A DNA stretch of 56,125 nt, filler included, from Stramenopiles sp. TOSAG23-6 (Eukaryota), in NCBI GenBank assembly GCA_900128565.1. It is 2 parts of 2 records of this genome, joined end to end, with 100 filler letters (N's around TTAATTAATTAA, not from the genome) between each part and the next. Parts side by side here need not be neighbours in the genome. Positions count along the whole stretch, not along the records: positions 1 to 28,350 come from LT635978.1; 1 more part is not named here. One strand, written 5' to 3'. Position 1 is the stretch's first letter. Each line of letters begins with the position of its first letter. Made by a program: the position numbers and the translations under genes. Of this stretch, positions 1 to 56,125 are shown one piece after another. A model generated the notes under the pieces. It did no database searches. It had not been told where the DNA came from and was given only the letters and a program-made list of their open reading frames with translations.

Positions 1-56
1 TTAGGTACGGAATTTCGTATGAAAAAAACAAAAAAAAATTCATCACGAAATTGTAC
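1..56 (-). other. Partial repeat-family intron (donor GT at 56; truncated by window edge)
   Basis: Minus strand reads GAT|GTAC...TTTTCATACGAAATTCCGTACCTAA, matching the family core. Confidence 0.7.
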
Positions 57-3000
57 ATCATATATTTTCAGAGCCTCATTTAGAATTGTTCTTTTGAGAT
101 CTATATCGCCATTGCAATGATGATCAGTAAGTAAAAGATCAGGATCTATTCTAATATCATTTGATGACCAATTTGGAAACGACATTACCAAAAATAATTT
201 GCGTTTATCTAAAACTTGTTGAGCGATACTTTGAGATGCACGAACAGGTTTATTCCTGAGCTTTTCTTTCCCATTGACGAGTTCGCCTTGTTGCTTCATA
301 TAGCGAGGTCGATATTTGATAAATTCATCAATATCTGAAATTTCTTTCTCTAATCGTTCAATGCTTTTTCGAGTCCCATGTTTTGGTGCATCTAACGCTT
401 CACAGTAAATTTGCACGGCTTGTTGTAAATATTTGGATATTGTAGATTGGTTTTCATTTGCACTACAACGCAAATCACTCAGCGCTTCGGCCAAATTAGA
501 GGCTCTCCCAAAAATACAATCACATTTAACAATATCACATAGATAGTCTACACAGTCACTCACCCAAGTATCATCAAAAGTAATATGTTGCTTTCTCTCT
601 TTTGTACCACTACAAGACTGTATAAACAAACCTTTTATACGGTTAATTATACTATTATCCACACTATTTTGAACTGGAGTTGTTCCATTATAATCCAAAG
701 GAGGGCGAGTGTTTATTATACGTGTTAACTTTTCATTGCCACAAACCCAAAAGAGATCTCCATCATAATCACCACCAGACATTTTATGCGCCTCGGAATA
801 TTCACCACGGACTGAAAAAACTAAACGTCCTACTCTATCTTTTGAACAGATTTCCTTGAGTTCATCGGGTACTACAGCTTTTAACTTACGTATATCGCCA
901 GGCCACATACAAGGATTCCGAGTGATCAAAACATCACCTTCTAAGTAACATCCTTCGCCATCACAAATAAAGACTTCTCCTGGTTGAAGGACTTGTTCTA
1001 TTGTTGGATCAGTGACACCGATAAAGTAGTAACTTTTAGGTATCTTGATTTTTAGACGACTAATTTGATCAATTAATGGAAGAATAATCAATTTCTTCCA
1101 TATGTATCACAAAAAAATATTTCGAAAATTTCAGTTTTTTTGTTAGGTACAACATTTCATACGAAAAAAAAAATAAATTCAAAATTAAAATGATGAAAAC
1201 GTACTGTAATTGTAGAAATGGATCGGAAAGTGATTGACCTGCCTGTATCATATCATTTAAAAGTGTAGGAGAACGACTAGAGATTGGATCAATTGTATCG
1301 CCTACATGATATTGACGAAATGCAAATCTCAGCATTTCTTGACGAAAATTTGGATTATTCAAAGAATTTGAACATAGAGATGAGTTTGATCTTTGTTGTT
1401 CTGACTCATTGTTGTATGATTCTTTACTCGGTATCATCGAACGAATGATTTCCATTTCTTTTTCATACAAGTCTAGTAAAAACGCAACAGCATTCGATCC
1501 TCCCAAAGCACAAAGCTGTAATGCAAATTGCTGGTTAAGTTTTGCTGGAGTTCCTCTATATGTACGAGATGAAGTGATAACTTCCACTTGACCTTTAGTT
1601 TCTGGATTTTGAAAGCGATGAGATGGGCTGCATTTAATCATGGATTTACGAAGTACGATTACTGTATTCTTGATAACATTGTCAGATGCAGAATGTTTAC
1701 GAAGAATTTGACGCAAATACTCGCGAGATACAACTTGAAGGGTTCCCTTTGCCAATCCTTTGTCGGAATGAATTCTCACCTGAAATACCGCAGGCTGTCT
1801 TTCCATATTAATACATGTAGGAGTGGGTGAAGATTCGGAACCTTTGAAAACATTTGTCGGAAATAAAAATGCGAAATCTTCAGCAACAAAACCAGTTCCA
1901 TCTGTCATGTTTACATGATGATGATACACATCATCCATAACATAAACATCGCCATTTTGTAATGATGGGCCGCGGGCTGTCTTTGAAAAACCCAGTTGTA
2001 GTCTTGCATTAAATTTAGCTATAGACAGAGAAGCCACGTCACCAATCCAACCTCGAACATCATCCACTGTTACATTACAAGTATTATATGCAAGGAATTC
2101 TGCAAATAATATCGCTTCTAATCCTGTTTTATTTCGATTTGTAACTTTGCGTACAAATAACAAAGAATATCTTACATTATATAAAGCTCTTTTCATATCT
2201 TTGCAAGTCACGCAAAATAATTCATTATCAATGTCAGAAAGAGACAATTTTAATTGTGATATGAATATATCCTTACATTTAGACTGGCGTGGGATATCTA
2301 TAGCAATATGAAGAAATCTTGATTTGCCAAATTCTCTTTCGAGTACACCCATTCCATTATCGTCTGCACACATGTATTGTGAAAAAATATTTCAAAAAAA
2401 ACGAAAAAAAATAAATTCGAAATTCAAAAAAAAATAAAACATACACTCCAAATGAAACATCAAATAAACCTTTTTTGTGACCTTTCACGAAAACAAACTC
2501 TCCATTTTGTGGTAAATTTTCAAAAACGATTTTCTCATTGGTACATTCAGTGTATTCATATTCATCAGCGTATTCTCCAGATATTTTACTATTTGCACTA
2601 CTATAATCATCATAATTTTCATCAATATCATCGCCATCAGTAGTATTACTTTCAGAACAAAAATCATCATAATTTTCATCACCATCAGTAGTATTACTTT
2701 CAGAACGAAACTCCAAACTTTTCTGATGGTCCTTATACCGTAAACAATTGTCACAATTATTGCAGCGCTCATAAGTATTTCCATTTTCTCCATTGAAATA
2801 CCTCCGAAAAGCAACTTGGCGACACGTAATTTTGTCACAACAATATGCATGACACTTTTCGATTTCAATGCGTCGTCTCTGTTTTACTATTTCAGTGATT
2901 TTGTTTGAAAATCCTGTCGTAATAGATCGCAATAGATTTTGCTGATCTCGATGAAACAGAACAAGGCATTGGGCAGGTTTCCTATCACGACCTGCACGGC

Positions 3001-4244
3001 CAGCTTGTTGATATAAATGTAATAATGACTTTGGCAAAGCAGCATGAAGCACCCAACGCACATTCTGATTATTAACACCCATACCAAATGCTTCAGTTGC
3101 ACACATTATAATTGGCCATTTACCAGGGTTGGAACAACCCTCAGACCACTTTTTATGTAAGTAAGTCTTGTCCCTTGATGTTCTAATACCACCATGATAG
3201 TAAGTTGCAATGCCTTCGCCAAATTTCAAATTAATATGACGACAAAGTGATTCACATTCTTTCTTGGTAATTGTATAAACAATACCTGGCTTTCCATTAT
3301 TCTTTTTTATGAAGTTTATGACACGAGATAATGTATTTGGGTGTGAATGTATTTTCGAAAAATATTTCAAAAAAAAATTGTTAGGTACAAAATTTCGTAC
3401 GAACAAAAATGGAATTTGAAAAAAAATAAAACATACATGGCCTTGGTTCCTACTATTCCATTCACTCAATTCTTCACAAGCAAAAAAAAGATTTTGTCTG
3501 CCACCAATGTTTTCTCTTATCATCGTGTAGGTGTTAAAATCATCACTACCAAATAAATCATTCGCAATAGTTTTCTGAACAAAAATAGTAGCTGTCGCAG
3601 TCAAAGCAAGCAAACTAATCGATGGAAACATTCTAAGCCACTTATGTAAGTCTTTATAGTTTGGTGATAAATCCTCACCCCAAGTTGAAATACAATGTGC
3701 TTCATCTACAACAACCCGTGAAAGCTTGCCTCTATCATACAATTTTTGAAGGATACATTGGCCTAAAAACAATTGAGATTTTTCACAAACAAAAGACTGA
3801 ACAGTAACGTATAAAAGTCGACAAGTTCCGTTTAATACATCTAATTTGGTCTGTTCATATTCCTTTGAAGAAATATCTGAACGTAGGCACCGTGCATTGA
3901 ACAGTTTCTTCAGCTTCTCTGGCATTTTGTTTATTTGTAACATTTGATCATAAATCAATGATAGAGTGGGTACAATAACAACAGTAAGGCCATCATTCTG
4001 TTTGAAAATGGATTCATATTGTATTTCTACGACGTATTGTTGATTTAATTGCTTCTAGCTGTAGCGCCCGAAAACTCTTAAAAGAAAACAAATTAAAGAG
4101 TAAAGTTGACAGTTTTTCATCCAGTGAGATTCTGTCTCCAGTTTTCCTTCCTCTTCCTTTGCTTTTGGCTGCCTTTATTTGGCGAGTCTTTTGTCTCTTG
4201 CGGGCCTCATTTCGAGCAATCTCAAGTTTTGATAGTGCAGTCAT
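57..4244 (-). CDS. RecQ-family helicase fused to eukaryotic RNA-dependent RNA polymerase (RDR/QDE-1 family); multi-exon, C-terminus runs off the window
   Basis: Exons ~4244-3437, 3346-2445, 2371-1205, 1101-57. RecQ motifs: FRALQLEAI, VIVPTLSLIYDQ, VVDEAHCISTWG, FGMGVN, QQAGRAGRD, CR...CNNCDNC Zn site. RdRP motifs: TDGTG, QVR..KG and, in my manual translation of 1101-57, GVTDP, LQPGEVF, TRNPCMWPGD, SGGDYDGDLFWV (DYDGD at 770-756), ALDAPKHG. Frameshift and missing Walker A near 4014-4030. Confidence 0.8.
1102..1204 (-). other. Non-canonical GT-AT intron (103 bp)
   Basis: GTACGTTTT...TCGTATGAAATGTTGTACCTAAC...GATACAT. Removal gives FLQLQ-WKKLIILPLIDQISRLKIKIPKSYYFIGVTDP, in frame with the RdRP catalytic exon; the next AG is out of frame. 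Confidence 0.85.
2372..2444 (-). other. Non-canonical GT-AT intron (73 bp, lacks the TACCTAAC core); joins RecQ and RdRP parts
   Basis: GTATGTTTT...GAAATATTTTTTCACAATACAT. Removal gives FDVSFGV-CADDNG in frame. Confidence 0.7.
3347..3436 (-). other. Non-canonical GT-AT intron (90 bp, in-frame, stop-free)
   Basis: Full family consensus; translated in the ORF track as VCFIFFQ...VRNFVPNN...SKIH inside RecQ. Confidence 0.8.
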
Positions 4245-4662: not shown

Positions 4663-6751
4663 ATGTCGCGGAATGTGTTAGATAAATGGAGATTAGGTGG
4701 TCGTCCAACAGGAGTGAAGCCTTACGTCTACTGTTTTCGAACTAAAAGCTTGAACAGTTATAAGCACGGTGAGTATTGTTGGGATAAACATGGTCAGGGA
4801 GTTGTATCAGCAATTGATCAGAGAAACAGTATAGTTGGAGTTTCGAATTATGCTGCCTTAAATTCCGGTCATTTTGAATTACGAAAGAGTGATGATGCTT
4901 CAAAATACCACATTAAGCAACATCTTCAAGATGGTACAGTTGTGCGCTGTGTGGACACTATTAACAATGTTATAATTGTCCAGCGAAATCGAAACAAATC
5001 ACATAAAAATAGATATAACTTAGTAGAGGACGAGCAACAAAATGTAAAAATAGAAAGAAATCGAAACAAATCACATAAAAATAGATATAACTTACTAGAG
5101 GAACAAAATGTAAAGGTAGAAAAAAGTACTGTAGAAATTGCTCCAAAACGAAGAAGGAGAAGGAAGAAGAAAAAGAAACACGATCCTGGAGGTCTAAAAG
5201 CGTTGAAAAAAGAAATGAAACAAATGATGGGAATATCATCTGTAAAACCGAAAAAAGATAATTCTATATTTGAATCTCAAAAGGAAACAACACAGCAACT
5301 ACATCTAAATTCACAAGAAAAAAAGATTATTCGTGTTTTGAACACAGTATCTATATTTGAAGGTATGCTATTAGAAACGTTAGCTGAGATGGCCCGAGAA
5401 ATGGAAGAAATGACATTCCAAGATGGTTACTCTATCATCAAACAAGGTGCAGAAAATGATAATGAATTTTATGTTTTGATAAAAGGTTCCGCTAATGTAT
5501 TAATTAAACGTGTTGCTGTTGCTGCACTGAAAGCACCAACGTTCTTTGGTGAACTGGCGCTCTTAAATGATGCTCCAAGAAATGCCACAATAAAATCTCG
5601 TGGAACAACTACATGCCTAATCCTTCGCCGTGCTGCGTTTAACCGATTTGTTAAAGAAAATACGAAACGTTGTACGTTTTTATCATGAATTTTAATTTTA
5701 TTTTTTTTCATACGCAATTTTGTACCTAACGAATTTCAGTTTTTTTTAATATTGTTTCACAATATATGCATGGAAAATGCAAATATGGAAAGAGAAGAAA
5801 AAGTTTTTCATGCTGCAAATGCTAATCTTATTACAGCCACAGAATATCTTGATGAATACGACACAAATACACGAAATACACGAGACGCTGGGATATTGAA
5901 AGTGAAAGATGCAATTAGTATTTTACGGAATGCTATAAAAATGACCTCTGAAAATAGAGTAAGGGGCAATCCTTTGCAATTATTCCACATATATATGTAT
6001 GTTTTATTTTTTTTCAAATTCGAATTATTTTTCGTACGAAATTTCGTACCTAACGAATTTTTTTTGAAATATTTTTCCAAAATACATACAACTTGGTAGA
6101 GGTCATCTTAATTTAGAAAATGAAGATGAAGCTCAAAGAGCTTTGATGGAAGCCACTCGAATTATGAAAATAAATGATCTTGATCATAAAAATCCTCGAA
6201 ATGAAATTTTATTAAGAGAGGTATTCGGAAATGCTTTAGGGTGGTTTGGTCATATCAGAGCAGCGAATATTCATTTTATAAAGGGAAAACGATTGGCAAA
6301 GGAGATTGGAGATCGACAACAGGAGCTTCAATTTGATATGTTTTACAAAGAAATCCTTTTAAGAAATGGACGATTTGATGAAGCTATGGAACTAACAGTG
6401 CTATTAAGAAAAGAAAAGTTTATTGGAAGAAAACAGAGAACTTTAAAAAAAGAAAAAGAAAAACCACCAGATTATCTACGAAAGAGTACACATAATACAT
6501 ACCATCTTTTCTCGGATGATGCTTTACGATGGATAGTACACAAAAGAGTGTATCCTAACCCTGATTCTACTTCATCTATTGCAAAGATTGGAACCATGAA
6601 TAGATCGGAATTACTAAATTTAATTATTGCATTTGACGATAGCGTAACATTCCATGAAGCAATGACATTAAAATGGCAACACCATATGCGTAGTATGAAT
6701 AGTGATAGTCTCGTAGCTCCACCTTTTTGCAAACGATTTCCCAAGATTTAA
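4663..6751 (+). CDS. Cyclic-nucleotide-binding (cNMP) domain protein with helical/TPR-like C-terminal region; 3 exons (4663-5671, 5768-5996, 6088-6751)
   Basis: IIKQG..FYVLIKG..FFGELALLNDAPRNATI cNMP motif; three ORFs join in frame after removing two family introns. Confidence 0.75.
5672..5767 (+). other. Non-canonical GT-AT intron (96 bp)
   Basis: GTACGTTTT...TGTACCTAAC...CACAATATAT. Removal gives TKR-C-MENAN; the internal CAG at 5737-5739 is out of frame. Confidence 0.8.
5997..6087 (+). other. Family intron, GT-AT (91 bp); an in-frame AG alternative exists at 6099
   Basis: Near-perfect consensus copy; removal gives FHIY-I-QLGRGH. Confidence 0.75.
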
Positions 6752-14436: not shown

Positions 14437-14815
14437 ACACGGGGCGACGAAAATATAGAAAAAAGTCCAAAAATAAGAAATCGAAAAATTGGCCTAATTT
14501 GCTCAAAGCTGAGAGATTTTCTTATTCCTTTCAGATTTGAGGTGGGGCACATAGCTGGAGCTTAAATCTGAAAGGAATAAGAAAATCTCTCAGCTTTGAG
14601 CAAATTAGGCACATTGTGCATTTTTGGCATTTTGGAAACTTCATGCTAAATTTTTAGAAATTTCATGAAACTTTTGAATTTTTGGAACTGGTACCGGGTA
14701 ATTATTGAAATTTGTCCATTTTTTTTGGAAACATGGAAAAAATTGGACAAAATTTCGCCAAAATATTTCGTGTTCTTATTTTTGGACTTTTTTCTATATT
14801 TTCGTCGCCCTGTGT
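14437..14815. mobile_element. MITE-like fold-back element with 43-bp terminal inverted repeats and an internal 47-bp perfect hairpin
   Basis: 14437-14479 is the reverse complement of 14773-14815 (1 mismatch); 14492-14538 is the reverse complement of 14564-14610 with a 25-nt loop; no coding capacity; no clear TSD. Confidence 0.65.
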
Positions 14816-15244
14816 CATCGATCTTGATCTGAATTTTTATTTTCTACCCAGTGGGTATTTAGTATTAATACCTGTGGGGTACTGTTCGGCAAGCGTTTCA
14901 TATATCTCTATCTAAAACAAAACAGTACAATATCAAAATATCAAAATATCAATATAAATATTCTAAAACAAAAAATTACAATAATTTGCTCGGAATAAAA
15001 ATCCATAAATGTTAATTTATTATACAATCACAAGACTATAGTTCAAACAAAGTCCTAATCTACATCTTATTTATAATATCATTATGATATTATCGAAAAT
15101 AATAAATAAAAAAAACATTCTTTTTATCAGTAAATATTTTTTCTTAGAATGAGAGAATCCAAATAAAAATAACTAGAATCAAAGAAATTTTTAAAACAAG
15201 ACTCCAATCCTAAAAAAATATACAAACATCACTCTCATTATCAG

Positions 15245-16603
15245 TTATAACCGATAATTTGCTGCTAAAGCTGCCAACAATAGAACAGCAAGAGGCACTA
15301 GGTATATATGTTGATGAATTACATGGGTAATGCGTCCTAGAGCAGTCGGAGGTAATTGGAAGTCAGTGTGAATGTTACTGAATCGTTGACGAATTTCCTC
15401 TGGAATTGATAGTTGGTTGTTGTTCAAGTTCAAAGTCCAAAGTTTTCTTAGTTGACCAATTTCCGTTGGAATTGAACCAGATAGGTTGTTACAATTCAAG
15501 TACAATTCTTTGAGATTTGTTAGTTTACCAATTGTAGCAGGAGGTATTGAGCCAGTTAGTTCATTGTTGTTCAAATGCAATTCTTCGAGATTTGTTAGTT
15601 TACCAATTTCACTCGGAATTGAACCAGATAGTTTGTTGCTGTACAACCACAATGTTTGGAGATTTGATAGTTGACCAATTTCTTTTGGTATTGGACCAGT
15701 TAGGTTGTTCATATACAAGTACAATTTTTCGAGATTTGTTAGTTGACCAATTTCTTTTGGAATTGGACCAGTTAGTTTGTTATCAGACAAGCTCAAATCT
15801 ACGAGCTTTGTTAGTTGACCAATTTCTTTTGGAATTGGACCAGATAGTTGGTTTCTTCCCAACTTCAATTCTTCAAGATTTGTTAGTTGACCAATTTCCT
15901 TTGGAACTGAACCAGATAATTTGTTGCTTTGCAAGAGTAATTTAGTAACACTTCCTTCAGTACACGTAACTCCCCCCCATTCACAAATATCTGCATCTGT
16001 TTTCCAATTTGTCTTACGCCTCCAACCATCTCCATTTGTACTATCATACAATATAGTTAGAGCTTCTTTTTCCAATAAATTACGATGTTTCACTTCTACA
16101 CGGCTTAACCATTCGGCACAGGTTTCGGTTTCATTCCTTGTAAGGGTGGTTGTTTCTACGTTGAGGCGAACAGAACTTTCAAAAAACATTCTGAAAATTC
16201 CTTTAACACGGTCATACCACTTCCATAAAGATTCATTTGGGGTTTGTTTAGTAAGTTCTTTCATTCGGTCTTCAGTGGTTTTTCCTCCGAAATTTTCGAC
16301 AACTTTCATTAGTAAGTAATCTGCTTCATCCTTAACCTTTTTACTGGTATGCTGATGTATCACAGCATTTGCAGTGGACAGAATCATTCTTTCAGATGGA
16401 GTAAGAAATTCACTCAGAGGGCGCATAGCAGAGTCTGTGAATTTTTGCGCACCGACGTCTTCATTTGCGAGACGATTAGCAGCACGTGTTGGATTAGTGG
16501 GAGAGGCGTTTCCCTCACGGAGGAGATGTTGTGAAGCATTGACAAGAGTAATCAACATGAATAACGACAACATAGAAGTGTATCGAGTGAGTAAGATTGT
16601 CAT
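15245..16603 (-). CDS. Secreted/membrane-anchored LRR protein, plant-specific 24-aa LRR type, 8 repeats
   Basis: Hydrophobic N-terminus, N-cap ALTILYDSTNG..W..CEWGGVTC, LxxLxLxxNxLSGxIPxEIGQLxx repeats, hydrophobic C-terminus. Confidence 0.85.
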   Translation of the reverse strand: MTILLTRYTSMLSLFMLITLVNASQHLLREGNASPTNPTRAANRLANEDVGAQKFTDSAMRPLSEFLTPSERMILSTANAVIHQHTSKKVKDEADYLLMKVVENFGGKTTEDRMKELTKQTPNESLWKWYDRVKGIFRMFFESSVRLNVETTTLTRNETETCAEWLSRVEVKHRNLLEKEALTILYDSTNGDGWRRKTNWKTDADICEWGGVTCTEGSVTKLLLQSNKLSGSVPKEIGQLTNLEELKLGRNQLSGPIPKEIGQLTKLVDLSLSDNKLTGPIPKEIGQLTNLEKLYLYMNNLTGPIPKEIGQLSNLQTLWLYSNKLSGSIPSEIGKLTNLEELHLNNNELTGSIPPATIGKLTNLKELYLNCNNLSGSIPTEIGQLRKLWTLNLNNNQLSIPEEIRQRFSNIHTDFQLPPTALGRITHVIHQHIYLVPLAVLLLAALAANYRL

Positions 16604-17046
16604 GATATGTTTTTCCAATCAAAAGTAATACCTTTATGTTTGTACTAATTAGTTACACGAGAACTTCGCATCGATCATGAAAGAGTCAGCGTCGACGTCA
16701 GCTGACCAAATTTAACACGAAATCTCATAAATTCCTACTATCAAAATATCAATCTAAAAATTCTAAAACAAAAAAAATTACAATAATTTGCTCGGAATAA
16801 AAATCCATAAATGTTAATTTATTATACAATCACAAGACTATAGTTCAAACAAAGTCCTAATCTACATCTTATTTATAATATCATTATGATATTATCGAAA
16901 ATAATAAATAAAAAAAACATTCTTTTTATCAGTAAATATTTTTTCTTAGAATGAGAGAATCCAAATAAAAATAACTAGAATCAAAGAAATTTTTAAAACA
17001 AGACTCCAATCCTAAAAAAATATACAAACATCACTCTCATTATCAG

Positions 17047-18639
17047 TTATAACCGATAATTTGCTGCTAAAGCTGCCAACAATAGAACAGCAAGAGGCAC
17101 TAGGTATGGACGTTCATCTATATGTTCATATATTACACGGCCAATACGTCCTAGAGCAATCGGAAGTTCGTGGAAGTCAGTCTCAATGTTACTGAATCGT
17201 TGACGAATTTCCTTTGGAATTAATAGTTGGTTGTGATTCAAGGTCAAAAGATCGAGATTTGTTAGTTTACAAATTTCCGTTGGTATTGAACCAGATAGTT
17301 GGTTATGTGACAGTTGTAACCAATCTAGATTTGATAGTTGGCCAATTTCTTTTGGAATTGAACCAGATAGATTGTTGTTGTGCAAGTTCAAATCTTCAAG
17401 ATTTGTTAGTTGACCAATTTCCATTGGAATTGAACCCGATAGCTTGTTGTTGTACAATTCCAAAGTTTTGAGATTTGATAGTTGACCAATTTCGGTTGGA
17501 ATTGAACCAGATAGTTGGTTACGATACAAGTACAATGCTTTGAGATTTGTTAGTTGACCAATTTCCGTTGGAATTGGACTAGATAGTTTGTTTTCGTTCA
17601 ACGACAATCTTTCGAGATTTCTTAGTTGACCAATTTCCTTTGGAATTGAACCAGTTAGTTTGTTTTCGTGCAACAACAATTTTTCGAGCTTTGTTAGTTG
17701 ACCAATTTCTTTTGGTATTGAACCAGATAGTTTGTTGCGATTCAAGCGCAATTCTTTGAGCTTTGTTAGTTTACCAATTTGATTTGGAATTGGACCAGTT
17801 AGTTTGTTATCAAACAAGTACAATGCTTTGAGATTTGTTAGTTGACCAATTTCTTTTGGTATTGAACCAGTTAGTTCGTTGTTTTCCATGTTCAATTTTT
17901 TCAGATTTGTTAGTTGAAAAATTTCAGTTGGTATTGAACCAGATAGTTGGTTGCTAAACAAGTACAATTCAGTAACGCTTCCATTAATACACGCAACTCC
18001 CTCCCATATACAAATATCTGCATCTGTCTTCCAATTTGTCTTACGCCTCCAACCATCTCCATTTGTACTATCATACAATAAAGTTAGAGCTTCTTTTTCC
18101 AATAACTTACGATGAATACTTTCTACACGTTGTAGCCATTTGTCACAGGTTTCGTTTTCTTTTTTTGCGAGGGTGGTTGTTTTTTCTTTGAAGCGTTCCA
18201 AACTTTCAGAAAACATTCTGTGAATGCTTTTCACACGGTAGAGCCACTTCAATAAAGGTTCATCTTTGGTTTGTTTGGTAAGTTCTTTCATTTGAATTTC
18301 CACTTCTTCAGTGGTGTTTCCTCCGAATTTTTCGACAACTTTCATTAGTAAGTAATCTGCTTCATCCTTGACCTTTTTACTGGTATGCTGATGTATCACA
18401 GCATTTGTAGTGGACAGAATCATTCTTTCAGATGGAGTAAGAAATTCACTCAGAGGGCGCATAGCAGAGTCTGTGAATTTTTGCGCACCGACGTCTTCAT
18501 TTGCGAGACGATTAGCAGCACGTGTTGGATTAGTGGGAGAGGCGTTTCCCTCACGGAGGAGATGTTGTGAAGCATTGACAAGAGTAATCAACATGAATAA
18601 CGACAACATAGAAGTGTATCGAGTGAGTAAGATTGTCAT
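17047..18639 (-). CDS. Secreted/membrane-anchored LRR protein paralogue, 11 repeats
   Basis: First ~110 aa nearly identical to the 15245-16603 gene; more and different LRR units. Confidence 0.85.
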   Translation of the reverse strand: MTILLTRYTSMLSLFMLITLVNASQHLLREGNASPTNPTRAANRLANEDVGAQKFTDSAMRPLSEFLTPSERMILSTTNAVIHQHTSKKVKDEADYLLMKVVEKFGGNTTEEVEIQMKELTKQTKDEPLLKWLYRVKSIHRMFSESLERFKEKTTTLAKKENETCDKWLQRVESIHRKLLEKEALTLLYDSTNGDGWRRKTNWKTDADICIWEGVACINGSVTELYLFSNQLSGSIPTEIFQLTNLKKLNMENNELTGSIPKEIGQLTNLKALYLFDNKLTGPIPNQIGKLTKLKELRLNRNKLSGSIPKEIGQLTKLEKLLLHENKLTGSIPKEIGQLRNLERLSLNENKLSSPIPTEIGQLTNLKALYLYRNQLSGSIPTEIGQLSNLKTLELYNNKLSGSIPMEIGQLTNLEDLNLHNNNLSGSIPKEIGQLSNLDWLQLSHNQLSGSIPTEICKLTNLDLLTLNHNQLLIPKEIRQRFSNIETDFHELPIALGRIGRVIYEHIDERPYLVPLAVLLLAALAANYRL

Positions 18640-19147
18640 GATATGTTTTTCCAATCAAAAGTAATACCTTTATGTTTGTACTAATTAGTTACACGAGTGT
18701 GCGCATTGCAGGCTCGCTGAATTGATTTGAACGAAATTTAAAGTCAGCTGACCTTTTAGGTAAGAAATTTTCTACCAAATCAAAAATCAAAGGCTAACTA
18801 GAATCGGATCTGAAAGTTGTAACAGTTACTGCTTAGAATAACCCTAGGTACCAGTACTGCGCCACTCAATACAATAATGCCTCTCGAAGGAGTCGTTATA
18901 TTATTATTATTCTGAATTGCAGTTTTCTAAAAATGTATACAGTGTTCTACGTACAAAAAAGATACGTAGAACGCTGAATGTATAGTAATATGTAAAGCAT
19001 TAAAAGAAATATAATACATCTTAAATTAAATTCGTTTATTTAACTGTACACTGTACACATTGTAAAAGTATATAGATCTAAATTGTACCTATCATAATTA
19101 TTAAGTTCTCACATCCTTCTAGAATAAATTATAAACATCAAAGATCA

Positions 19148-22100
19148 TTAATGTTGGCTTGACTTTGAAATTTCTCGGAGTCTTCGTCTTGCTCCCGACG
19201 GTAGGCGCAAAGCTCCACCTCTACTTTCAACAGGAAGCATTGTTAAAGCAAGAACTGCTGGCGGACCCGCTGATGCAACTAAACGGCGCCAGTTTCCATA
19301 GGGCATCTCACGTTGCAGCGGTGGAGCATCTTTACCACGCGCTACTTCAATCTCATCTAGAAGACTAGAGAGAAGTTTTGGAGGGATTCCAAAGTGAGCA
19401 GCATCAAAGTGAATAATTTTGGTTTTAGTATCATCCCGGATACCATTTTTATTACTTTCAGTCGAATCACTCAAAACATTTGATGCCTCAGCCACCAAAG
19501 CAGCAGCGGCAATATTTACAGGTAAGACCCCAACACTGCGCTTTTTAGAGGTCAACCCAGCGGGGCTTGCACCTGTTACCTCTACAGCAGATAGCAAGAG
19601 TGAGAGCCAATCACGACGCTCTGAACGCGGTGTATAGTGAGAAATATTTTCATTGCATTCAAAAGAAGAATTCATATTTTGTTTGGATGAAACTGGAGGA
19701 CCAATCAGCCCAAGACGGACAATAACAAGTTGTATTTTCCCACGAGCTGTATTTTGGAAAAATATTTGAAAAAAAACGTTAGGTACAAAATTTCGTACGA
19801 AAAAAATATCGAATTTGAAAAAAAATAAAACATACATGCTGCAGCAGCAAAGAGATGTTCAGCAACCATTTTACTACGGGCGTATCCACTACCTAAAGAC
19901 ATTGCACATGATGATGGAACCAATGAGTCAACTGGGTCTCTCCAGTCTGCTACTTTCGCTGCCGCGGCAACTGGAATCACACTCATAGTAGATACAAATA
20001 CAACAAGTGGTTTTGTATACTTGCTAATGTAATTGTTGTTCTTATTTACATTGATTGCTCGCGAGGAACTTGGAGATATGAGGTCAACTAGAGCTGCAAC
20101 AGAGGCAACATTAGTTGCACGAAGTGAATTATAGGGTCGAGCATGATCAACTGATGCACCGCTATGTAAAACAGCGCCAAAGTGCATTGCCTGAATGGTT
20201 GAGAAGTCAGATGTTGAAAGACCAAGTTGAGGTTTTGACAAATCATATTCAAACACAAGCAAACGACCAGACGTTTTTGCTTCATTCGTTGCACAGCTTT
20301 TACAAATACGATCAAGTGGGCTACGCGTCAAAACTACTATGGTTTTCCATGAATTATTCAAAATTGCATCAAGAAGATGAGGACCAAGGAATCCAGTGGC
20401 TCCAGTGAGAAGTATACAGGGTGATTTTACTTCATTATTGCTTACACATACTTTTTCTACTGGAACCTTTTGAAGAGCTTGCCAAGCAACATCGAAAGAA
20501 ACCTCCTCTTTCCAAAATATGGTAGATTCCGTCTTGGTAGATTCCGTCTTGGGTATGCACTGCGCATCGATGTTATCAAAGTTTGACTGCTCAATTGCTT
20601 GCACAGTATCATTCTTGAAAGAATGGATGTAAAACTGCGCCTTTCTTCGAAGATCCCAGGGTAAGAGGGCATATATATCCCTCACGGAAATCCTTTCAAT
20701 AGACATTGAGGTTGAATTTCTTATATATTGTTGATCCCAAGCAGCTACAAGTAAAGTTGCAGCAATACTGTCACCACCTAATAATGTCCACCATTCTCCA
20801 GGATCTAATTCCTTGGAATTTACCAAGGCTTCAGGTAATAACTTTATTGCCTCTTTATCAGTTTCTGCTACTAAAAACGCTAATATTCTTTCGACTACAT
20901 CATTACTACCATGATCTATATTGTTACTAATGCTTGAGTTCACTGTTGACGTTGTCGTTGTAGTAATGATACCTGGGTGTCGACTTGCAATAACATTTCG
21001 CCTGAGCTTTCCATGAGAAGAACAACAGCCACTTGTCTCATCCCACGGACCACTGTCAATCGAAACACGATCAGGACACTCCCAACTTCTTAGTCCAGCT
21101 TCAGATGCTGCTAATCTCATTTCTCTAATAATTTTACGAGCTACATCAGCTGTTGTTTTTACCGGGACCTCGTTTTGTTTTACTGTAGAAATGCTCGTAT
21201 TTGCAACAATGACAATAGCAATTGGTTTCACATCACCAGGTCTTGCAATTAGCACACAACTTTCGATAGAGGGACAGTGCTCTTCATATACCCATTCCAC
21301 AGTCTGCGGTGAAAAAAATTCACCATTATCTAGTTTGACGGTAAAGCTAACACGTTCACAAACTTCTAGAAGTTTTCGTTCTGGTTCATTCTCATTTCCA
21401 GGGCGAACAATCCAACGACCAAGGTCTCCAGTATGGAACCATCCAGCAGCATCCAATACCACTGCATCGGTGCCTCCATTTTGTAAAGGTTTCTTCACTA
21501 GAATCTCACCTAAATCATCCCGGTATTTGTGTTTTAACAACTTGATATGTACACCTTTCAGTGGAACACCATCGCGTGTAATGCCACCAATTTCAGTCAT
21601 GGCATATCCATTCGAAACAACAGCGTTACCACCGCCTTTACCACCTTTTCCAAAACATTTTCGAAGAAAATCTAATAATGGTGGAGGAACAACTGCACCA
21701 CCAATAGCCACTAGTCGAAGACGAGATCCACCAAGACGCCGAATTATTCCAAAAGCAGTTGTTGTAGCTTTTTCAACAGTTTTACTTTCTTTACATAAAT
21801 TATGTAACTCGATTTCATACCGACGTTGATATAGAGAATAGAAGCGCGGTGCTGCTGAGAGTGTGGTTGGTGCAATAGCAAAGATCTGATCAAGAATATC
21901 TATTTCTCTACACTTATTATCGCTTTTTCTATCACTAGTACCTCTCGGATTTGTTTCACTATTATTAGATATATTACTATTACTATAACACACACCGCGA
22001 GTATTACAAAGGCCAAGACGCCCGCCATGTAGCAACTCACCCCATGACGTTCTACGAGCTAACGCATGAGACAATGGTGCAAATAGTGCAGCACAAGATA

Positions 22101-26342: not shown

Positions 26343-28292
26343 ATGACGGACTACATGGCAGAACTGATTACAGAGACAGGGTTGGCTGTGCCTGCACCGA
26401 ATACTATGCGAGGGCATCGTACTCCTATTTCTGTAAACGCTAAAGATGGGGACACGTTTGCATACGGCGCAAAAAAGATGACAGTCATCCGTAGTTTACG
26501 TACGCCGTCTACTTCTTTGGTTGACACGAATCATCAAGAAACAGTCCGTGTTGCTCGATTTGATAAAAGTGGTTCTTGGGTAGCAAGTGCAGACGTAACA
26601 GGAGTACTCCGCGTGTGGGCTTGGAAACGGGAGGATCATTTATTGAAAAAGGAAAGTCGACCAATTGCAGGAGAGGTTACAGATTTGGCTTGGGATTCCG
26701 ACTCAAAGCGCATCGCTGTAGTTGGAAAAGCCCGGGGATGCAAAGGCAAAGTTGTTGGATGGGACACAGGATCGGCGATGGGTGAGCTTACGCAACACAC
26801 TAAAAATATCAATTGTTGTTCTTTCCGTCAATCTCGTCCGTTTCGTGTGTGTACTGGAGGAGAAGATAGAAATGTCATTTTGCATCAAGGACCTCCGTTC
26901 AAAGTGCTTTTGCGTAATAAGGCCGGACATAAAAATTATGTAAATGCTATGGCATACAGTCCTGATGATTCTGTATTTGCTACGGGATCATCAGATACTC
27001 GTATTCGCATATGGGACGGGAAAACTGGAGAAAAACTAAAGCAAATGGCCTGTACGTTTTTCAACCAAATGTCTACTTTTTTTTGTTACGAAATTTCATA
27101 CCTAACATTTTTTTTTTCCCTTTTCAAATGAATGACTAGAATGTATCGTTCAATTTGAAGTTTATTTTTATACCACATTCTCTGTATCTAAACATATTTT
27201 CGAATTGTGCATATTTCTTTACTGTACACGGAAAGGTGAAAATCCTGGACACGTAGGTTCCGTGATGGATTTGTGCTGGTCAGAGGATGGAAAAACAGTA
27301 ATTTCCTGTGGTAGTGACAAAAAACTTTGCTGGTATGATCTTGAAACACGAGCGTGTTTGAATGAGTGTATTGTCCGTGATAAAGTTACCGTGACTTCGT
27401 TTCCAGATCTAAAACCGCAAGTCCATCATCAGCTGGTTAGTGTTTCTCGGTGCGTTTTCATTTCAATTTCGAATTTGGTTTTTTTTTCGTACGAAATTTT
27501 GTACCTAACGATTTTTTTTGAAATATTTTTTCATAATCCATGTGCGGCGATAAATTATTAGTAGGCTCTCTTGCTGGAGATATCAATGTCATTGAAGCTA
27601 CAGATGGCACATTTGTCGACACTATATATAGTCATACATCTATGGTATCTAAAAATAGTCTTGTACTCGCATCCGATGGGAAAACAGTTTATTCAGGAGA
27701 TCTTGGTGGTATGATTTTCTGTTGGGATGTTACTGCTGATTACCTTCAGCTTTCACGATTACCTGGTTATGCTGTGCCTGACGATAACCGAATGGCACAT
27801 GATGGTTGTGTGCAAGGTATCGCAGCTCTTACTAACAATTGTCTTTTGTCTGTTGGTAATGATGACACGTGTCGTGTTTGGATGAATGGAGTCTCAGCAG
27901 GTGTTGGGGATAAACTTGGAGGCCAACCACGTTCTATGGTGTCTGTTGGTCCTTCTGATAAGGCTACTATGGCCATTATTGTGACTTCGAAAAATAAAGT
28001 TCTTACGGTCAATGGGTCAGGGAAAATTATTTCATCATTCGATTTACCTTATTCTGCTAGTAATGCTCTTGCTGTGTCTGTAACTGGAACTGAAATTGCT
28101 ATTGGTTCATCTCAAAGAGGTAGAGGTGTAATGCATAGATATGAACTTGTTGATGGCGTAATTGGCAATGAGCTTCAAAAAGTCTGTGGTAATGCAGAAT
28201 ATTATGAGAATGCTGAAGACGCAGAGTATTCTCCGGATGGCACGATGTTGGCTGTTGGCTGGGGAAAAGGAGAAGTTTCGCTATATGAAAGT
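26343..28292 (+). CDS. WDR1: WD40-repeat actin-interacting protein 1 (AIP1/WDR1)-like; exons 26343-27051, 27230-27449, 27542-28292; truncated at contig end
   Basis: PAPNTMRG, VASADVTG.LRVW, WDSDSKRIAVVG, WDTGSAMGEL..H, RPFR..TGGED, GPPFK hallmark motifs. Confidence 0.8.
27052..27229 (+). other. Family intron, GT-AC (178 bp; possibly two abutting units split at 27142/27143)
   Basis: GTACGTTTT...ATACCTAAC...GAAT|GTATCG...TGTACAC; removal gives KQMA-W-KGENPGH. Confidence 0.65.
27450..27541 (+). other. Non-canonical GT-AT intron (92 bp)
   Basis: GTGCGTTTT...TCGTACGAAATTTTGTACCTAAC...ATAATCCAT; removal gives QLVSVSR-CGDKLLVGSLAG; downstream AGs are out of frame. Confidence 0.8.
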
Positions 28293-28350
28293 GTATGTTT
28301 TATTTTTTTTCAAATTCGAATTTTTTTTTCGTACGAAATTTTGTACCTAA
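28293..28350 (+). other. Partial family intron at contig end
   Basis: GTATGTTTT...TCGTACGAAATTTTGTACCTAA followed by Ns. Confidence 0.8.
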
Positions 28351-28450
28351 NNNNNNNNNNNNNNNNNNNNNNNNNNNNNNNNNNNNNNNNNNNNTTAATT
28401 AATTAANNNNNNNNNNNNNNNNNNNNNNNNNNNNNNNNNNNNNNNNNNNN
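28351..28450. other. Artificial contig linker / assembly gap
   Basis: 44 N + TTAATTAATTAA (stops in six frames) + 44 N. Confidence 0.9.
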
Positions 28451-35347: not shown

Positions 35348-37302
35348 TTATAAAAAATTAGATTGAGTAACCTTCATAGCCATATTTTTTTCCATCCGAG
35401 CTTTTTTTTTCCCTTTTAAACCTGCTACTTTATCTTCATATGTACCACCGCAGTGTCGTTTGCACAATTTCGTATACTTCTTTGTACGATTATCAGTAAA
35501 ATCTGCATCAACGGTAAAACAATCTTCTTCGGGAGAATGACTCGCATTTTCTATTGATTGTAGCAGCGTTCTGGCCATTGCCGCTTTCACAGAATATCGA
35601 CACCATTGCTTTTCAACAACTTTCCTAATTGATGACAATGCACGTGTACTAATTGTGTGATCAAAATCAAGGTTATCAAAACTACAATCATACAAAAGAA
35701 GAGGCCAGTCTGGTGCCATGTCGTATCCAGGTTTACAAGGGCATTTTGAAATATCTAAAAGTTGTTTAATTATGTATTTTAGAAAAATATTTAAAAAAAA
35801 AAAAAATTGTTAGGTACAAAATTTCGTACGAAAAAAAAATAAATTCGAAATTGAAAAAAAAATAAAACATACATAGAAGGGTTTTCTTGACCACGACCGA
35901 CTAGAAATAGTACCGCAACCATACAACGTACTTGATGCCATAAAAATCCACGTCCACAAATTTCAAATACGAAAACTTCATCAGTATTGTTTTCTTGTAT
36001 TGTTTCATCATTACTTTTCATTTCTTCTTCTTCTAAAATTTTTACTCCGTTTTGGGTTGCTTTAAATATTTTACAGGTGAGAATTTCTCTAACAAAATTG
36101 TGGACATTTACCACATCCATTTTACAAAAGTTACGAAAGTCATGCTGACCAACGAAATACGATGCTGCTTCTTGCATTTGATGAAGATTGAGGGATCTCT
36201 TTGGGAAGAAATATCTATAAGTTCTACTACGACAACTAAATCGTGCATCAAATGGTTGCAATGTTTGAGATTCATTTTTTTCATTTAATTCTTTCAAACG
36301 AAATGTATGTTTTTGTCTTGGAGCTTCGGACCAACCTAAAACTCTAATTTCTAAAGGTAATACATTATTTAGTAGCATTGCGTAGTCATGTTCTTTTTTG
36401 TGCATGTTGAGTTTACTTTCTAATGAACTTGAAGGTATTAAACGAACACTGAGCGTTCTACTTTTGAACTGTTTCTCAAAAACACAAGATTCTGATGCAC
36501 CAACATCTCTCCAAGTTGAGTTTTTCTCGTCCAATATTTGAATGATTGTATCAATCGGTGCAATTCCCATATAGTGATCGATTTTAGTTTCCAAATCTGC
36601 AACAGTTGCATTTTTTGGAAGATGTAGACAGGTTTTTCGGAAACCTCCGAACATTTCAGTTTCCACTTTGACTACAACGTTATCACTATCATCAATAAGA
36701 TCAATTTGTTTAGACTTATACTCCATATATTTAATACCTTCGGCAGCAGACTTTGATGCGGCTTCTGTGAGAACACGGGGAACAAATGCAACACCACGTT
36801 TGAGTTTTGACCGAAGGTTCAAAGCAATAACTTGACCTGATGCACTAACACCTTTATCGGTGCGACCACAACGGGAATACACAGATGATAAACGGTTTTC
36901 AATAAGGCAAGTTTTTTGTAAAGCATCAAATAGTTTTGATTCTACAGTATTATCCGTATCAGATTGAGATGCGAGACCTAAATAATCTTCTCCATTATAC
37001 CAAACTTTAAGAGCAATATGCCGCTGTCTATATTGTGAGAAATCAAATGGTCGACGGATCTTTTTCTTCTTTTTACATTTCACTTTTGCTGTTTTGTTAT
37101 TTACACTAATGGAAGAATGTACAGTTGCTGTAATGACTTTTTTAGTTATTGTAGACAGCCGAAGTTTTTTAAGAGGAGGCTCTTCTAGTTGCACATGAGA
37201 ACCTACGATACGACCGTTAATTTCGATTCTAGGACTTCCACTACGGTATTGCTGTACCAAATCAATCAGTTCCTCTTTTGAAAGGTTATCCAACCCATCC
37301 AT
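35348..37302 (-). CDS. PUS3: tRNA pseudouridine(38/39) synthase, TruA family; exons 37302-35873 and 35771-35348
   Basis: RHIALK, YSRCGRTDKGVSA, FDARFSC..RTYRY, HDFRNFCKMD, FLWHQVRCM, then KPGYDMA..PLLLYDC. Confidence 0.9.
35772..35872 (-). other. Non-canonical GT-AT intron (101 bp)
   Basis: Removal gives GQENPS-I-IKQLLDISKCPCKPGYDMA, the expected PUS3 segment; the next AG is out of frame. Confidence 0.9.
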
Positions 37303-47925: not shown

Positions 47926-49063
47926 ATGATCAAGACGAAATTAGAAACAAAAACAATGGGACCTACCCAAAATGCAATCCAAGAAAAGTATGGCTATAGA
48001 CAATGGTTGTCTAAAAACTATGATTTTGCTAAAAAGCTTGAGGACGGAGCGCGTATGCTAACGTTGTTATGCTCTTCACAACTTGATGAGAGGTCTGGTC
48101 TCCTAGCTGAAGGTGTGTACGCAGTTATAAATACAATAGGAACTTTAAACGACCATATTATATCTCGAGGTGAAACAACAATTGGTAGCAAATCTGCATG
48201 GGCATTGACCCTGATAAGTAATCTTGCTGTAGTTGCTGAAATGCTCTCTGCTAGAAAAGGAAATAAGTCAAAGTGGCGTACAATTACTTATGTCGAGTTG
48301 TTGAAGGCTGCTCTTAGAATTATGATTCTTATACGTAGTGGCTGGGCTACCCAAATAAATGATTCTTTGTACATGCCAATTGACGACGATGTTCAAAGAA
48401 CAAAAGATCAACAATTGTGGTGGAGAGGTCGTCGTAGTGGCTCTTTGATACCACTTCCTTCTGGACTCTCTGCTCACAAATTCAAACAATTGAAGAACAA
48501 AGGAACACTTGTTCGTTCTCCAAATACTCCACGAGGTGTATATTCCAGTATTGGTGAATTACTGTATATAATACGACCTGTAGTTTTCTCATTGATGCGA
48601 TCTAAACAAAATACAAATACAAAGAAAAATATGTTCTGGGCTCCTTTTCTCCTATCCCTTGCTATTGACTTTGCGAGCTATCGTTGTTCAAATGCAGCTG
48701 TGAAATCAGCAGAAAAACGTGATGAAGCAACTACTGTAGGAGGCGGATCAGTACCATCTTTTATTAGTATGGAATTTTCTAGACGAAAACTTTTGTGGTT
48801 ACTTTACGCACTTAGAGAACCTTTCTTCAGTTCTGTCACAAAAAGAGCAACAGACAAAGTTAGCTCTTTGTCAAGTATGTTTTATTTTTTTCAATTTCAA
48901 AATTATTTTTTTTTCGTACGAAATTTCGTACCTAACAAATTCAACAAAAAAAAATATTTTTCACAATATATATTACGTTCCACTTTTTGGTATGTTAGTT
49001 CGTTATATGCTTGATATGTTGTACTATATCCAGCGACATCACTTTTATATCTCTGGCTCATAA
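47926..49063 (+). CDS. PEX16: Peroxisomal membrane biogenesis protein PEX16; exons 47926-48874 and 48972-49063
   Basis: ELLKAALR, GELLYIIRPVV, RRKLLWLLYALREPFF; spliced C-terminus NYVPLFG...QRHHFYISGS*. Confidence 0.85.
48875..48971 (+). other. Non-canonical GT-AT intron (97 bp)
   Basis: Family consensus; removal restores the PEX16 C-terminus; no AG within ~25 nt downstream. Confidence 0.9.
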
Positions 49064-50194: not shown

Positions 50195-52156
50195 ATGAAT
50201 ATATCGTTTTTCTCGGACGTTTCCACCACAAGTTACCAAAATCTTTCGGCAGCTTGTGTATTTGACGGCTGCAATCAGTCATCAATAGTATTCGGGAATG
50301 ATCAAGAAAATTCCTTTGATAGTAATTTTAACGCTTCCGCAGAGTTTGGTCGGGGAGAAAAAGAAGAAGAAGTGATTGATGACTCCATTTATCAAGGGAA
50401 GCCCCCCATAGAAATCAAAAGTCCACGTAGTCCACAACTAAATGGTACAAATTTGTTTTTGCCAAGGTCCAAATTGACTGAAAGTATCTTGGAAAGCAAG
50501 TCGCCTGTACATTTGCATCATTCATTTCAAATTTATAGTTCAAGTTTTATTTATTTTATATCCAATGTGTCTAATGAATTTCAAATTTGAAATATTCTTT
50601 TACAATATATGTTCCTATATCTCGAAATGATCAAGATGATATTAGAAATGATGTCAGTGTCCCCGCTACTGCCTGTTCTGACTTCTCTACCCCGAGTAGT
50701 TTTGACGGTTCTAGTGCACCAGGTGGAGGCGTTGATGTGACTTCTCGTAAACATACTGGTGATCAAGATGATATTAGAAATGATGTCAGTGTCCCTGCTA
50801 CTGCCTGTTCCTCCCTCTCTACCCCGAGTAGTTTGATCGGTTCAAGTGCAGCAGGTGGAGGCATTGATGTGACTTCTTGTAAACATACTGGTGGATACAT
50901 TCATGATGACCATACAAACAAAATAACACCCAACAAAAATGTACATTTACGTCATTCATTTCAAATTTATAGTTCAAGTTTTATTTATTTTATATCCAAT
51001 GTGTCTAATGAATTTCAAATTTGAAATATTCTTTTACAATATATGTTCCTATACCTCGAAATGACCAACAAGATGATATCAGAAATGATCTCAGTGTCCC
51101 TGCTACTGCCTGTTCCTCCCTCTCTACCCCGAGCGGTTCAAGTGCAGCAGGTGGAGGCATTGATGTGACTTCTTGTAAACATACTGGTGGATACATTCAT
51201 GATGACCATACAAACAAAATAACACCCAACAAAAATGTACATTTACGTCATTCATTTCAAATTTATAGTTCAAGTTTTATTTATTTTATATCCAATGTGT
51301 CTAATGAATTTCAAATTTCAAATATTCTTTTACAATATATGTTCCTATATCTCGAAATGACCAACAAGATGATATCAGAAATGATGTCAGTGTCCCTGCT
51401 ACTGCCTGTTCTGACTTCTCTACCCTGAGTAGTTTGGTCGGTTCTAGTGCAGCAGGTGGAGGCATTGATGTGATTTCTCGTAAACATACCTGTGGAACTC
51501 GTGGAACTGGTGGTTACATTGCTTGCCCTAAATGGACCACTTCAAAAAAAAGTGCCATATTGGCAAGAGATATTTTGTGTTGTCAAAAAAAACAACAACC
51601 CGATCAAGGTGGTCTTGTCATGCACCGTCATTGCAAAATACAACACTCGAATCTTGGTGGACGAAATTGTTGTTTGAATGCCTTCGACTTTGCAACTGGA
51701 AAATTTCGTACAGTCACAAGGAAGCAGATGCAACTGGAAGGTGCAGGCGACATCAGCATTATTGACATAGCCAAATACGTTAATGAATGTGGAAAGAAGG
51801 TACCCTTTAGATTGCGTACAAGGCCTGGGATGACCTGGGGTTGCCTAATTTCAAAAAAAGAAGGAATATTTGTTGGTCGTAGCTATGTTTATTCTGATAA
51901 ATCTCATCATTACATCGTTTATGATGCCTGGCGCTCGATCATATATATTGGATGTGGTTTTGCAGATGTGATGATCCAGGAAAGTGATCGTGAGGATCCA
52001 AAAGCCTTTGAGAAAAGATTTTCTGATGAATATGGCCTTGGTCTCCAAGTGGAACATTTGTACTGTTTGTATGTCATTGCAAAGCATGCATTCAAAACAA
52101 CATACAACACTCCAGATGACTACAAGCCTAAGTCGAAGAAGCGTAAGCTAATGTAA
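50195..52156 (+). CDS. Internally triplicated protein with C-terminal Cys/His domain (possibly papain-like); exons 50195-50506, 50611-50940, 51045-51236, 51341-52156
   Basis: Four ORFs join in frame via three phase-0 GT-AT introns; DDIRNDVSVPATACS repeats; NCCLNAF...HYIVYDAWR. Confidence 0.65.
50507..50610 (+). other. GT-AT intron (104 bp), divergent family member, copy 1
   Basis: GTACATTT...GTCTAAT...GAAATATTCTTTTACAATATAT; in-frame join. Confidence 0.75.
50941..51044 (+). other. GT-AT intron (104 bp), copy 2
   Basis: Near-identical to copy 1; in-frame join. Confidence 0.75.
51237..51340 (+). other. GT-AT intron (104 bp), copy 3
   Basis: Near-identical to copy 1; in-frame join to ORF 51434-52156. 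Confidence 0.75.
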
Positions 52157-55900: not shown

Positions 55901-56066
55901 TTGTAAAAAAAAGTCATACCTAACGATTTTTTTAAACAAAAACAAAATCTTTTTTCACAATACATCTCATAAACAAAATGGAAACAAAATTAAGGGATTA
56001 ATTCGTGTAATTCCTGTAATCTTTCAACAAGGCATTAACGAGAAAGCATTACTTCAAGACTGGGTT
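52994..56066 (+). CDS. MABP + uDENN/DENN/dDENN Rab-GEF (DENND4-like); multi-exon, runs off window
   Basis: LIDYFV, PITDLAVI, ADLNGG, DRFP, FCFPQG, FVLTG, FGACLTFYE, PKCIAVLSH, LLEERVLLVS, LLPFQWQGVYIPV, APMPFILG, GGYRRFL after removing family introns. Confidence 0.85.
54581..54669 (+). other. Non-canonical GT-AT intron (89 bp)
   Basis: Removal gives LLEER-VLLVSRQLALL (DENN core). Confidence 0.85.
55073..55218 (+). other. Non-canonical GT-AT intron (146 bp, diverged interior)
   Basis: GTATGTTTT...TTTTCACATTACAT; in-frame join PSYS-S-TSNDN. Confidence 0.7.
55371..55466 (+). other. Non-canonical GT-AT intron (96 bp)
   Basis: Removal gives LGGY-RRFLKI; using the adjacent AG (55467-55468) gives a stop within four codons. 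Confidence 0.85.
55557..55655 (+). other. Non-canonical GT-AT intron (99 bp)
   Basis: Full consensus, ends CCAAAATACAT. Confidence 0.75.
55659..55780 (+). other. Putative GT-AT intron (122 bp) following a 3-nt micro-exon
   Basis: GTATACG...TTTTCACAATATAT; needed to regain the frame LTRSSYDM. Confidence 0.55.
55848..55965 (+). other. Non-canonical GT-AT intron (118 bp)
   Basis: GTACGT...ATACCTAAC...TTTCACAATACAT; in-frame join SNR-S-HKQNG. Confidence 0.75.
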
Positions 56067-56125
56067 GTACGTTTTATTTTTTTTTCAATTTTGAATTTAT
56101 TTTCGTACGAAATTTTGTACCTAAC
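56067..56125 (+). other. Partial family intron at window end
   Basis: GTACGTTTT...TTTCGTACGAAATTTTGTACCTAAC. Confidence 0.8.

Follow-up and report, generated by a model that had tools for sequence, protein, structure and literature searches.

The genome of Stramenopiles sp. TOSAG23-6 harbors a large family of short introns. The explanation that fits them best overall, and which we consider probable, is a MITE-like introner whose 2-bp duplication is used as the acceptor and to whose donor the U1 snRNA has become matched. The family was studied in a stretch of 56,125 nucleotides (hereafter, the window), the DNA of which is AT-rich, gene-dense and eukaryotic, and in a wider sample of the assembly. 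For CCT-beta of the same genome, most of the named close relatives are stramenopiles (70–72% identity), and environmental proteins reach up to 89%.

The intron family and the copy at 5995–6087

The conserved 22-nt core of the family has 2,714 exact matches in the 21.1-Mb assembly, which is incomplete and consists of 6,236 contigs; the control gave 0. Many near-identical introns are located in unrelated genes, as is characteristic of introners. The wider sample comprised 126 overlapping stretches (877 kb), mostly picked around family matches. Donors and ends were scored with matrices in which neither the exon bases nor the final two intron bases count. Of 286 calls, 177 copies were left after de-duplication, and 133 of these have an open frame of 45 codons or more on either side of the intron; in an earlier pass over 530 kb, 133 of 200 cores had been retained. 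Because the caller accepts only copies with GT and an ATAC-like end, other donors go uncounted, and a few ends are miscalled. Two family copies with an apparent AT donor instead of GT (stretch L052, +5457, and stretch L048, -5279) were left out by it. Inverted and duplicated contigs (L040/L041, C13/C14, C27) suggest amplification chimeras; hence, raw copy counts are inflated, and the decrease from 286 to 177 on de-duplication came partly from overlapping stretches.

Removal of the intron restores the reading frame in 133 of the 177 copies. The exon base preceding the donor is T in 156/177 and the base before it is A in 127/177, against an exon background of 0.305 for T and 0.345 for A. The enrichment of T at −1 instead of the usual G, noticed by the sequence-only reading in the window (T in 18 of 22 donors, AT in 10), thus holds in the wider sample. 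Our own list of 18 window donors, which is not identical to that list of 22, gives a close result (T 15/18, AT 8/18); it was compiled by script and by eye, the script step producing three false calls and missing two donors. The introns end with AT in 136 copies and with AG, the acceptor of U2-type introns, in 9; GT is found in 9, TT in 8 and other dinucleotides in 15. A TACCTAAC-like motif is located at a median distance of 39 nt ahead of the intron end. The ends had also been described as mutually complementary and, in many copies, as movable without a change in the mRNA. Both descriptions are confirmed: TGTA..TACA is present in 94 and ATGTAT..ATACAT in 53 of the 177 copies, and sliding by −1 and −2 leaves the mRNA unchanged in 147 and 120, respectively.

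The copy at 5995–6087 (plus strand) has the layout AT|GTAT...ATAC-AT attributed to it earlier, as follows from the window letters (AT|GTATGTTTT...TACCTAAC...CCAAAATAC-AT) and from the restored frame. The exon-terminal AT at 5995–5996 is the left copy of the 2-bp target-site duplication and pairs with U10 and A9 of U1. The family intron occupies 5997–6087 (91 nt, GT..AT). Its donor GTATGTTT (5997–6004) is brought by the element and, together with the exon TAT, forms 11 of 11 pairs (two of them G-U) with the variant U1 described below; for the consensus U1 of Rfam, the count is 7 of 11. The conserved 22-nt core at 6033–6054 ends with the branch-point-like TACCTAAC, the presumed branch site. The 3′ end of the element is ATAC (6082–6085), a short imperfect inverted repeat of GTAT, and the subsequent AT (6086–6087) is the right copy of the duplication and, judging from the duplication, register and frame evidence, the putative 3′ splice site. 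The host gene (4663–6750, plus strand) encodes a cyclic-nucleotide-binding domain (PF00027, E 6.8e-14) and contains two family introns, the other one being TT|GT..AT at 5672–5767 (plus strand). Starting from the ATG at 4663, a 633-codon frame is obtained once both introns are removed, and retention of 5997–6087 leads to a stop at codon 446.

Further copies are distributed over the window. Those on the minus strand include CA|GT..AT at 1102–1204 (from the donor listing), GT|GT..AT without the branch core at 2372–2444, AT|GT..AT at 3347–3436 in a gene assigned by domain match to a RecQ-type helicase, AT|GT..AG at 19747–19835, one of the few AG ends, and AT|GT..AT at 35772–35872 in a tRNA pseudouridine synthase gene (domain match). 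The plus strand carries the family-type intron CT|GT..AC at 27052–27229 in a WD40-like gene (AIP1-like by eye), which is the sole junction with RNA support, CG|GT..AT at 27450–27541 (donor listing), the 5′ part of a copy cut by the assembly gap at 28293–28350 and AA|GT..AT at 48875–48971 in the gene of Pex16 (domain match). Three diverged copies at 50507–51340 (50507–50610, 50941–51044 and 51237–51340, plus strand) were multiplied by local tandem duplication, and a DENN-domain gene (54581–56125, plus strand) contains a cluster of copies at 54581–54669, 55371–55466, 55557–55655 and from 56067 to the end, along with others less clearly bounded. At 28351–28450, N runs around the linker TTAATTAATTAA join two separate contigs, with a family copy cut on either side; hence, the flanking halves are not one intron.

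Several other features of the window were recorded. On the minus strand of 1–4054, RecQ-type helicase domains seem, by eye, to continue across family introns into an RNA-dependent RNA polymerase-like region, labeled so by its motif. Leucine-rich-repeat-like genes at 14953–18700 are in tandem duplication, with 72-nt units and flanks 98–99% identical. The long imperfect intergenic inverted repeat at 14457–14800 (GGGCGACGAAAA...TTTTCGTCGCCC) is possibly another small transposon, as judged by eye.

Target-site duplication and splice register

The last two intron bases repeat the last two exon bases in 120 of the 177 copies (shuffle mean 90.8, maximum 105) and differ from them in 57. For ends other than AT, the dinucleotides match in 17 of 41 copies (shuffle mean 2.3, maximum 8). 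Same-base covariation is present only at −1 and −2, where none of 5,000 shuffles reached the observed value; at −3, p = 0.17. The proportion of matches falls with copy divergence (25/30, 51/63 and 44/84). Since the dinucleotide match exceeds that of the shuffles, a 2-bp target-site duplication can be assumed to supply the acceptor. This supports the earlier view of the ends as transposon-like termini, with the acceptor derived from a target-site duplication; enrichment of T and AT and same-base covariation were both found. A locus-specific target-site duplication is a feature of introners, and the logic of the test is that of 10.1101/2022.06.06.494994, as given in the available part of that paper. 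The junction AT|AT is found in 103/177 copies, and the flanks lean to C at −3 (65/177) and G at +1 (83/177), as a palindromic target preference would give, which suggests such a preference.

Perfect 4-nt inverted ends are present in 79/177 copies, and the terminal positions are without compensatory change. In survey usage, according to the accessible part of the source, a clear terminal inverted repeat has 6 nt or more; the short ends observed here look like a relic of mobility. The DDE_Tnp_4 search of the genome resulted in five matches at two loci, none of them with an element whose ends match the family. A 3,107-nt two-ORF PIF/Harbinger-type element (C2432, C2439; also C2433, C2440; stretches L131/L132) was ruled out as the parent, since its inverted ends are GGCC and its flanks TTA; a short family-core copy sits between its convergent ORFs, probably by chance insertion. 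The second locus has no clear element ends. Inverted ends that are only 4 nt long and imperfect, the lack of a matching transposase element in this search and the abundance of the family in non-polyA libraries (which may be DNA) would also suit a spread in which intron RNA is reverse-spliced into U1-like exon junctions, with no DNA transposase involved. Such a route, however, would in its plain form fix the last two intron bases, whereas here the local exon end is copied, and we consider it unlikely. Insertion of a MITE-like element is the preferred origin of the copies.

The splice register had been called ambiguous. It is now largely resolved to GT..NN by stops, a thiolase gene and one RNA contig, while the silent slides persist; GT..NN is the most likely register. 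With frames picked without the junction codons, GT..NN produced stops at 0 of 129 junctions, and slides by −1, −2, +1, +2 and +3 produced 3, 3, 4, 5 and 11, respectively (−3, none). The thiolase copy reads GHPL in GT..NN and GHRL when slid, GHP being what we take to be the thiolase motif. The stops from the −1 and −2 slides are all in AG- or AA-ending copies, as is the thiolase case, and the codon likelihood leans the other way, favoring the −2 slide in 26 of 36 informative cases and the −1 slide in 10 of 17; hence, where introns end with AT, the DNA does not settle the register by itself. The lean is partly expected from the AT-rich codon bias.

The RNA runs containing a window gene are seawater metatranscriptomes; on the basis of these and of the CCT-beta relatives, the organism is regarded as an uncultured marine stramenopile. 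In contig 12 of polyA run X2 (242 nt, depth 3.4), 209 nt align to 27230–27438, starting exactly at 27230, and the upstream-exon bin has a depth of 1.22, precisely what the 33 nt left over would contribute; the contig carries two unplaced differences. Depth arithmetic from this one contig implies the joint 27051^27230, that is, GT..AC, and implies that neither TG..CA nor the in-frame AG at 27235, 6 nt downstream, is used. The codon at 27052–27229, for which W or R had been predicted depending on the slide, is W according to this joint. The sole RNA-backed intron thus ends with AC, and no AT-ending junction occurs among the RNA joints listed; the intron 27450–27541 and the donor at 28293 are not bridged by RNA contigs. 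The RNA joints listed link family copies to one another and were discarded as repeat artefacts. The summed contig depth of the family core reaches about 18,000 in both of the non-polyA libraries, which come from one sample, against 7.4 and 4.8 in the polyA pair; exons have a depth of 3–6 in all of them. The contrast fits efficient intron removal, given that contig depth is rough and the non-polyA libraries may hold DNA.

It might be supposed that the family consists of ordinary GT-AG introns using the next downstream AG. An in-frame AG is located 12 nt past the end of the copy at 5997–6087 (6098–6099, plus strand), and the GT-AG reading 5997–6099 gives a 629-codon frame, so its sequence may be read in this way for that copy alone. 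Over the family, however, only in 35 of 126 copies does the first AG past the intron end keep the frame, no better than chance, and the RNA contig skips the in-frame AG at 27235, making this usage highly unlikely.

The proposal that end pairing may define the splice sites is not supported. Under it, base pairing of the intron ends would set the sites in the style of euglenid non-conventional introns, and cutting would take place at TG..CA or AT..AC. The copy at 5997–6087 does fold with a 7-bp terminal stem (z −3.1), GTAT/ATAC copies pair with a median probability of 0.6, slides are silent in most copies and the codon likelihood leaned toward the slid registers. However, complementary covariation is absent at any terminal position, and in the copies with C at +4 (n = 58) the unpaired A is kept in 56. 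The GTAC/ATAC copies pair with a median probability of 0.0, a pairing probability of at least 0.5 is reached in only 22 of the 70 folded copies (median 0.07), and the median fold z of the sampled copies is −0.98. A stem would hide precisely the bases to which U1 is complementary, and the RNA contig favors GT..AC. The conserved end pairing with variable borders typical of euglenid non-conventional introns was not observed, and splicing of this kind is very improbable. The GT..NN register of the introner is used below.

U1 and other components of the splicing machinery

The U1 found in the assembly starts with AAACGUACAUG, and the Rfam consensus with AUACUUACCUG. It is changed at three positions, 2, 5 and 9 (C to A at 9), and is the complement of CAU|GUACGUUU, i.e., of the family donor plus the target AT; the match to the −1 T is due to the A at the U1 position pairing with −1. 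The mean pairing over 133 donors is 10.11/11 for the variant U1 and 7.32/11 for the consensus. GT donors complementary to U1, as in U2-type introns, are thus found for the variant U1. This match of U1 to both the donor and the exon −1 T appears, from the sequences, to be what is new here, introners with a target-site duplication being already known. The U1 gene scores 54.1 bits (E 1.3e-12), under the Rfam cut-off of 69.5, and neither the model search nor the DNA search of the assembly found a second U1 form. The search for U1 relatives in metagenomes gave 24 matches, none alignable to the variant U1, and no confirmation from a second genome.

The U5, U2, U1 and U4 genes are arranged head to tail, 2–23 nt apart, and are followed by an AT-rich stretch. 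This cluster is located on C1146 (stretch L054:9–645) and is repeated on C6122 with an identical start; judging from the arrangement, it is possibly expressed as one precursor transcript. The standard pairing motifs are kept in U2 (GUAGUA), U6 (ACAGAGA, C3740) and loop I of U5.

An Hsp60-like gene (C437:31818–35093, stretch L107) contains three long canonical GTAAGT..AG introns, which pair better with the consensus U1 (10/11 at best, vs. 7/11 for the variant). The first of them includes a SNORD96-like C/D snoRNA match (E 2.1e-05, below the cut-off). No family core is found in 40 kb of contig C437. Since these canonical introns persist, a canonical U1 may be missing from the incomplete assembly. 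The variant would then be a specialized second U1 acting on the same introner, with an unassembled canonical U1 serving the old GT-AG introns, which is less a separate alternative than a special form of the best explanation. The CAG|GTAAGT donors of Hsp60 and the division of the assembly into 6,236 contigs are in line with this, and Physarum is said to have both a standard and a modified U1 (10.1101/2022.06.08.495308, available part). However, the variant occupies the only U5-U2-U1-U4 cluster found, no other U1 was retrieved by either search and canonical GTAAGT introns are confined to one gene across 877 kb, as estimated by a rough heuristic. We regard a specialized second U1 as possible, with a likelihood clearly below even.

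As to 3′ site recognition, both open frames of Prp8 appear intronless, and its middle part is close to the human chain, up to KKLTNAQRSGLNQIPN, a loop that presumably takes part in 3′ site docking. A change in the SGSTT motif of Prp8 was considered and dropped, the 118 homologs compared being one tight cluster with another variant. One motif pattern for U2AF35 gave two chance matches only.

Excision by the minor spliceosome, with the family read as U12-type AT-AC introns, was also considered, in that the −2 slide yields AT..AC in many copies and TACCTAAC resembles what we take to be the U12 branch motif. The slid donor, however, varies with the target (GT, TT, CT, AG) and departs from the presumed U12 donor consensus, ATATCCTT; the donor matches the major U1, and U12 snRNA was not found in the assembly by a search in which no control responded. 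This reading is extremely improbable, and the major spliceosome is assumed for the introner in what follows.

Proposed mechanism and comparison with known systems

We propose that a non-autonomous MITE-like introner of about 90–110 nt (GTAY...ATAC) has spread to thousands of sites. Its insertion, presumably by DNA transposition, would duplicate two bases of the target, most readily AT with C before and G after it, a loosely palindromic setting (C-AT-G); the duplication itself is shown by covariation. The element would carry the GT donor, the branch-like motif and a U-rich tract, and the right-hand duplicate would act as the acceptor, so that the exon regains its original sequence on splicing at GT..NN. 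The cutter would be the major spliceosome, with a putative branch at TACCTAAC, and the U1 changes at 2, 5 and 9 would serve to read CAU|GUACGUUU as the target AT plus the element start, a function suggested by the sequence match. The 3′ cut would occur two bases past the ATAY end, about 39 nt past the branch-like A; YAT would be favored there, and GT, TT, AG and others tolerated, most likely because U2AF or second-step factors check less strictly for AG. U1 may have changed in response to the invasion, and the reverse order, in which an already changed U1 let AT-targeting elements succeed, is equally open. That a transposon invasion rewrote the core splicing code, with the sole U1 of the cell reading the element end and its preferred target across the exon–intron border and the 3′ site being of no fixed sequence but the duplicated two bases placed by their position after ATAY, is put forward tentatively, at slightly less than even likelihood.

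If true, this would be a natural case of a mobile element and a spliceosome mutually adapted at both intron ends. Two old questions become open to experiment: whether an intron invasion comes first and the splicing machinery adjusts to it or the machinery lets the invasion happen, and what selects a 3′ site in the absence of AG if U2, U5, U6 and the part of Prp8 inspected are all standard in appearance. Gene finders and surveys of introns that insist on AG will overlook most introns of the lineage or cut them wrongly.

No report of the family or of the variant U1 was found in the literature, with subscription papers and some supplements outside the scope. The family core is absent from the 12 of 14 supplements of PMC12130899 that were searched and from the searched part of the single supplement of PMC9860276.

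The comparisons below refer to the available parts of the papers cited. In the introners of Micromonas (IE1) and Chrysochromulina, a duplication of 3–4 nt supplies a canonical AG (PMC11282704; 10.1101/2022.06.06.494994). The present family resembles them as high-copy short introns with an element-borne 5′ site, a 3′ site co-opted from the duplication and short inverted ends. Unlike in those introners, the duplication here is of 2 nt and gives AT or another dinucleotide (AG in 9/177). A 2-bp AT target-site duplication is shared with ISL2EU DNA transposons (PHIS superfamily), in which it lies within A|AT|T (PMC4482050). This flank is not the one seen here, since AT|AT (103/177) is accompanied by C at −3 (65) and G at +1 (83); unlike in ISL2EU, the duplication is not strictly AT, and the DDE_Tnp_4 search found no autonomous partner.

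Fritillaria borealis and F. pellucida have transposon-derived introns of the major spliceosome ending with YAT/YAC, the same triplet often standing at the upstream exon end; the donors of F. borealis are mostly non-GT (AG/AC 18%, AG/AT 16%), and the adaptation consists of U2AF duplication and snRNA methylation, a divergent U1 not being the route taken (PMC13326754). Non-AG, YAT-type ends shared with the upstream exon end and, presumably, a transposon origin and use of the major spliceosome are common to both systems. Unlike in Fritillaria, the donors here are GT, and U1 itself is changed.

Coevolved U1 sequences are described for Entamoeba (ACAAAC), Mastigamoeba balamuthi (ACGUAC) and Physarum (ACAUAC) (10.1101/2022.06.08.495308). 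The core of the variant U1, ACGUAC, is the Mastigamoeba form, and the A at position 2 parallels Entamoeba. The amoeba changes described there pair with intron bases only, whereas the C-to-A change at position 9 here extends the match to the exon −1 T; a U1 change at the base pairing with the last nucleotide of the exon is absent from the cases in the available part of that paper. Unlike in Entamoeba, Mastigamoeba and Physarum, the −1 T is here the target site of a mobile element, and the acceptors are non-AG.
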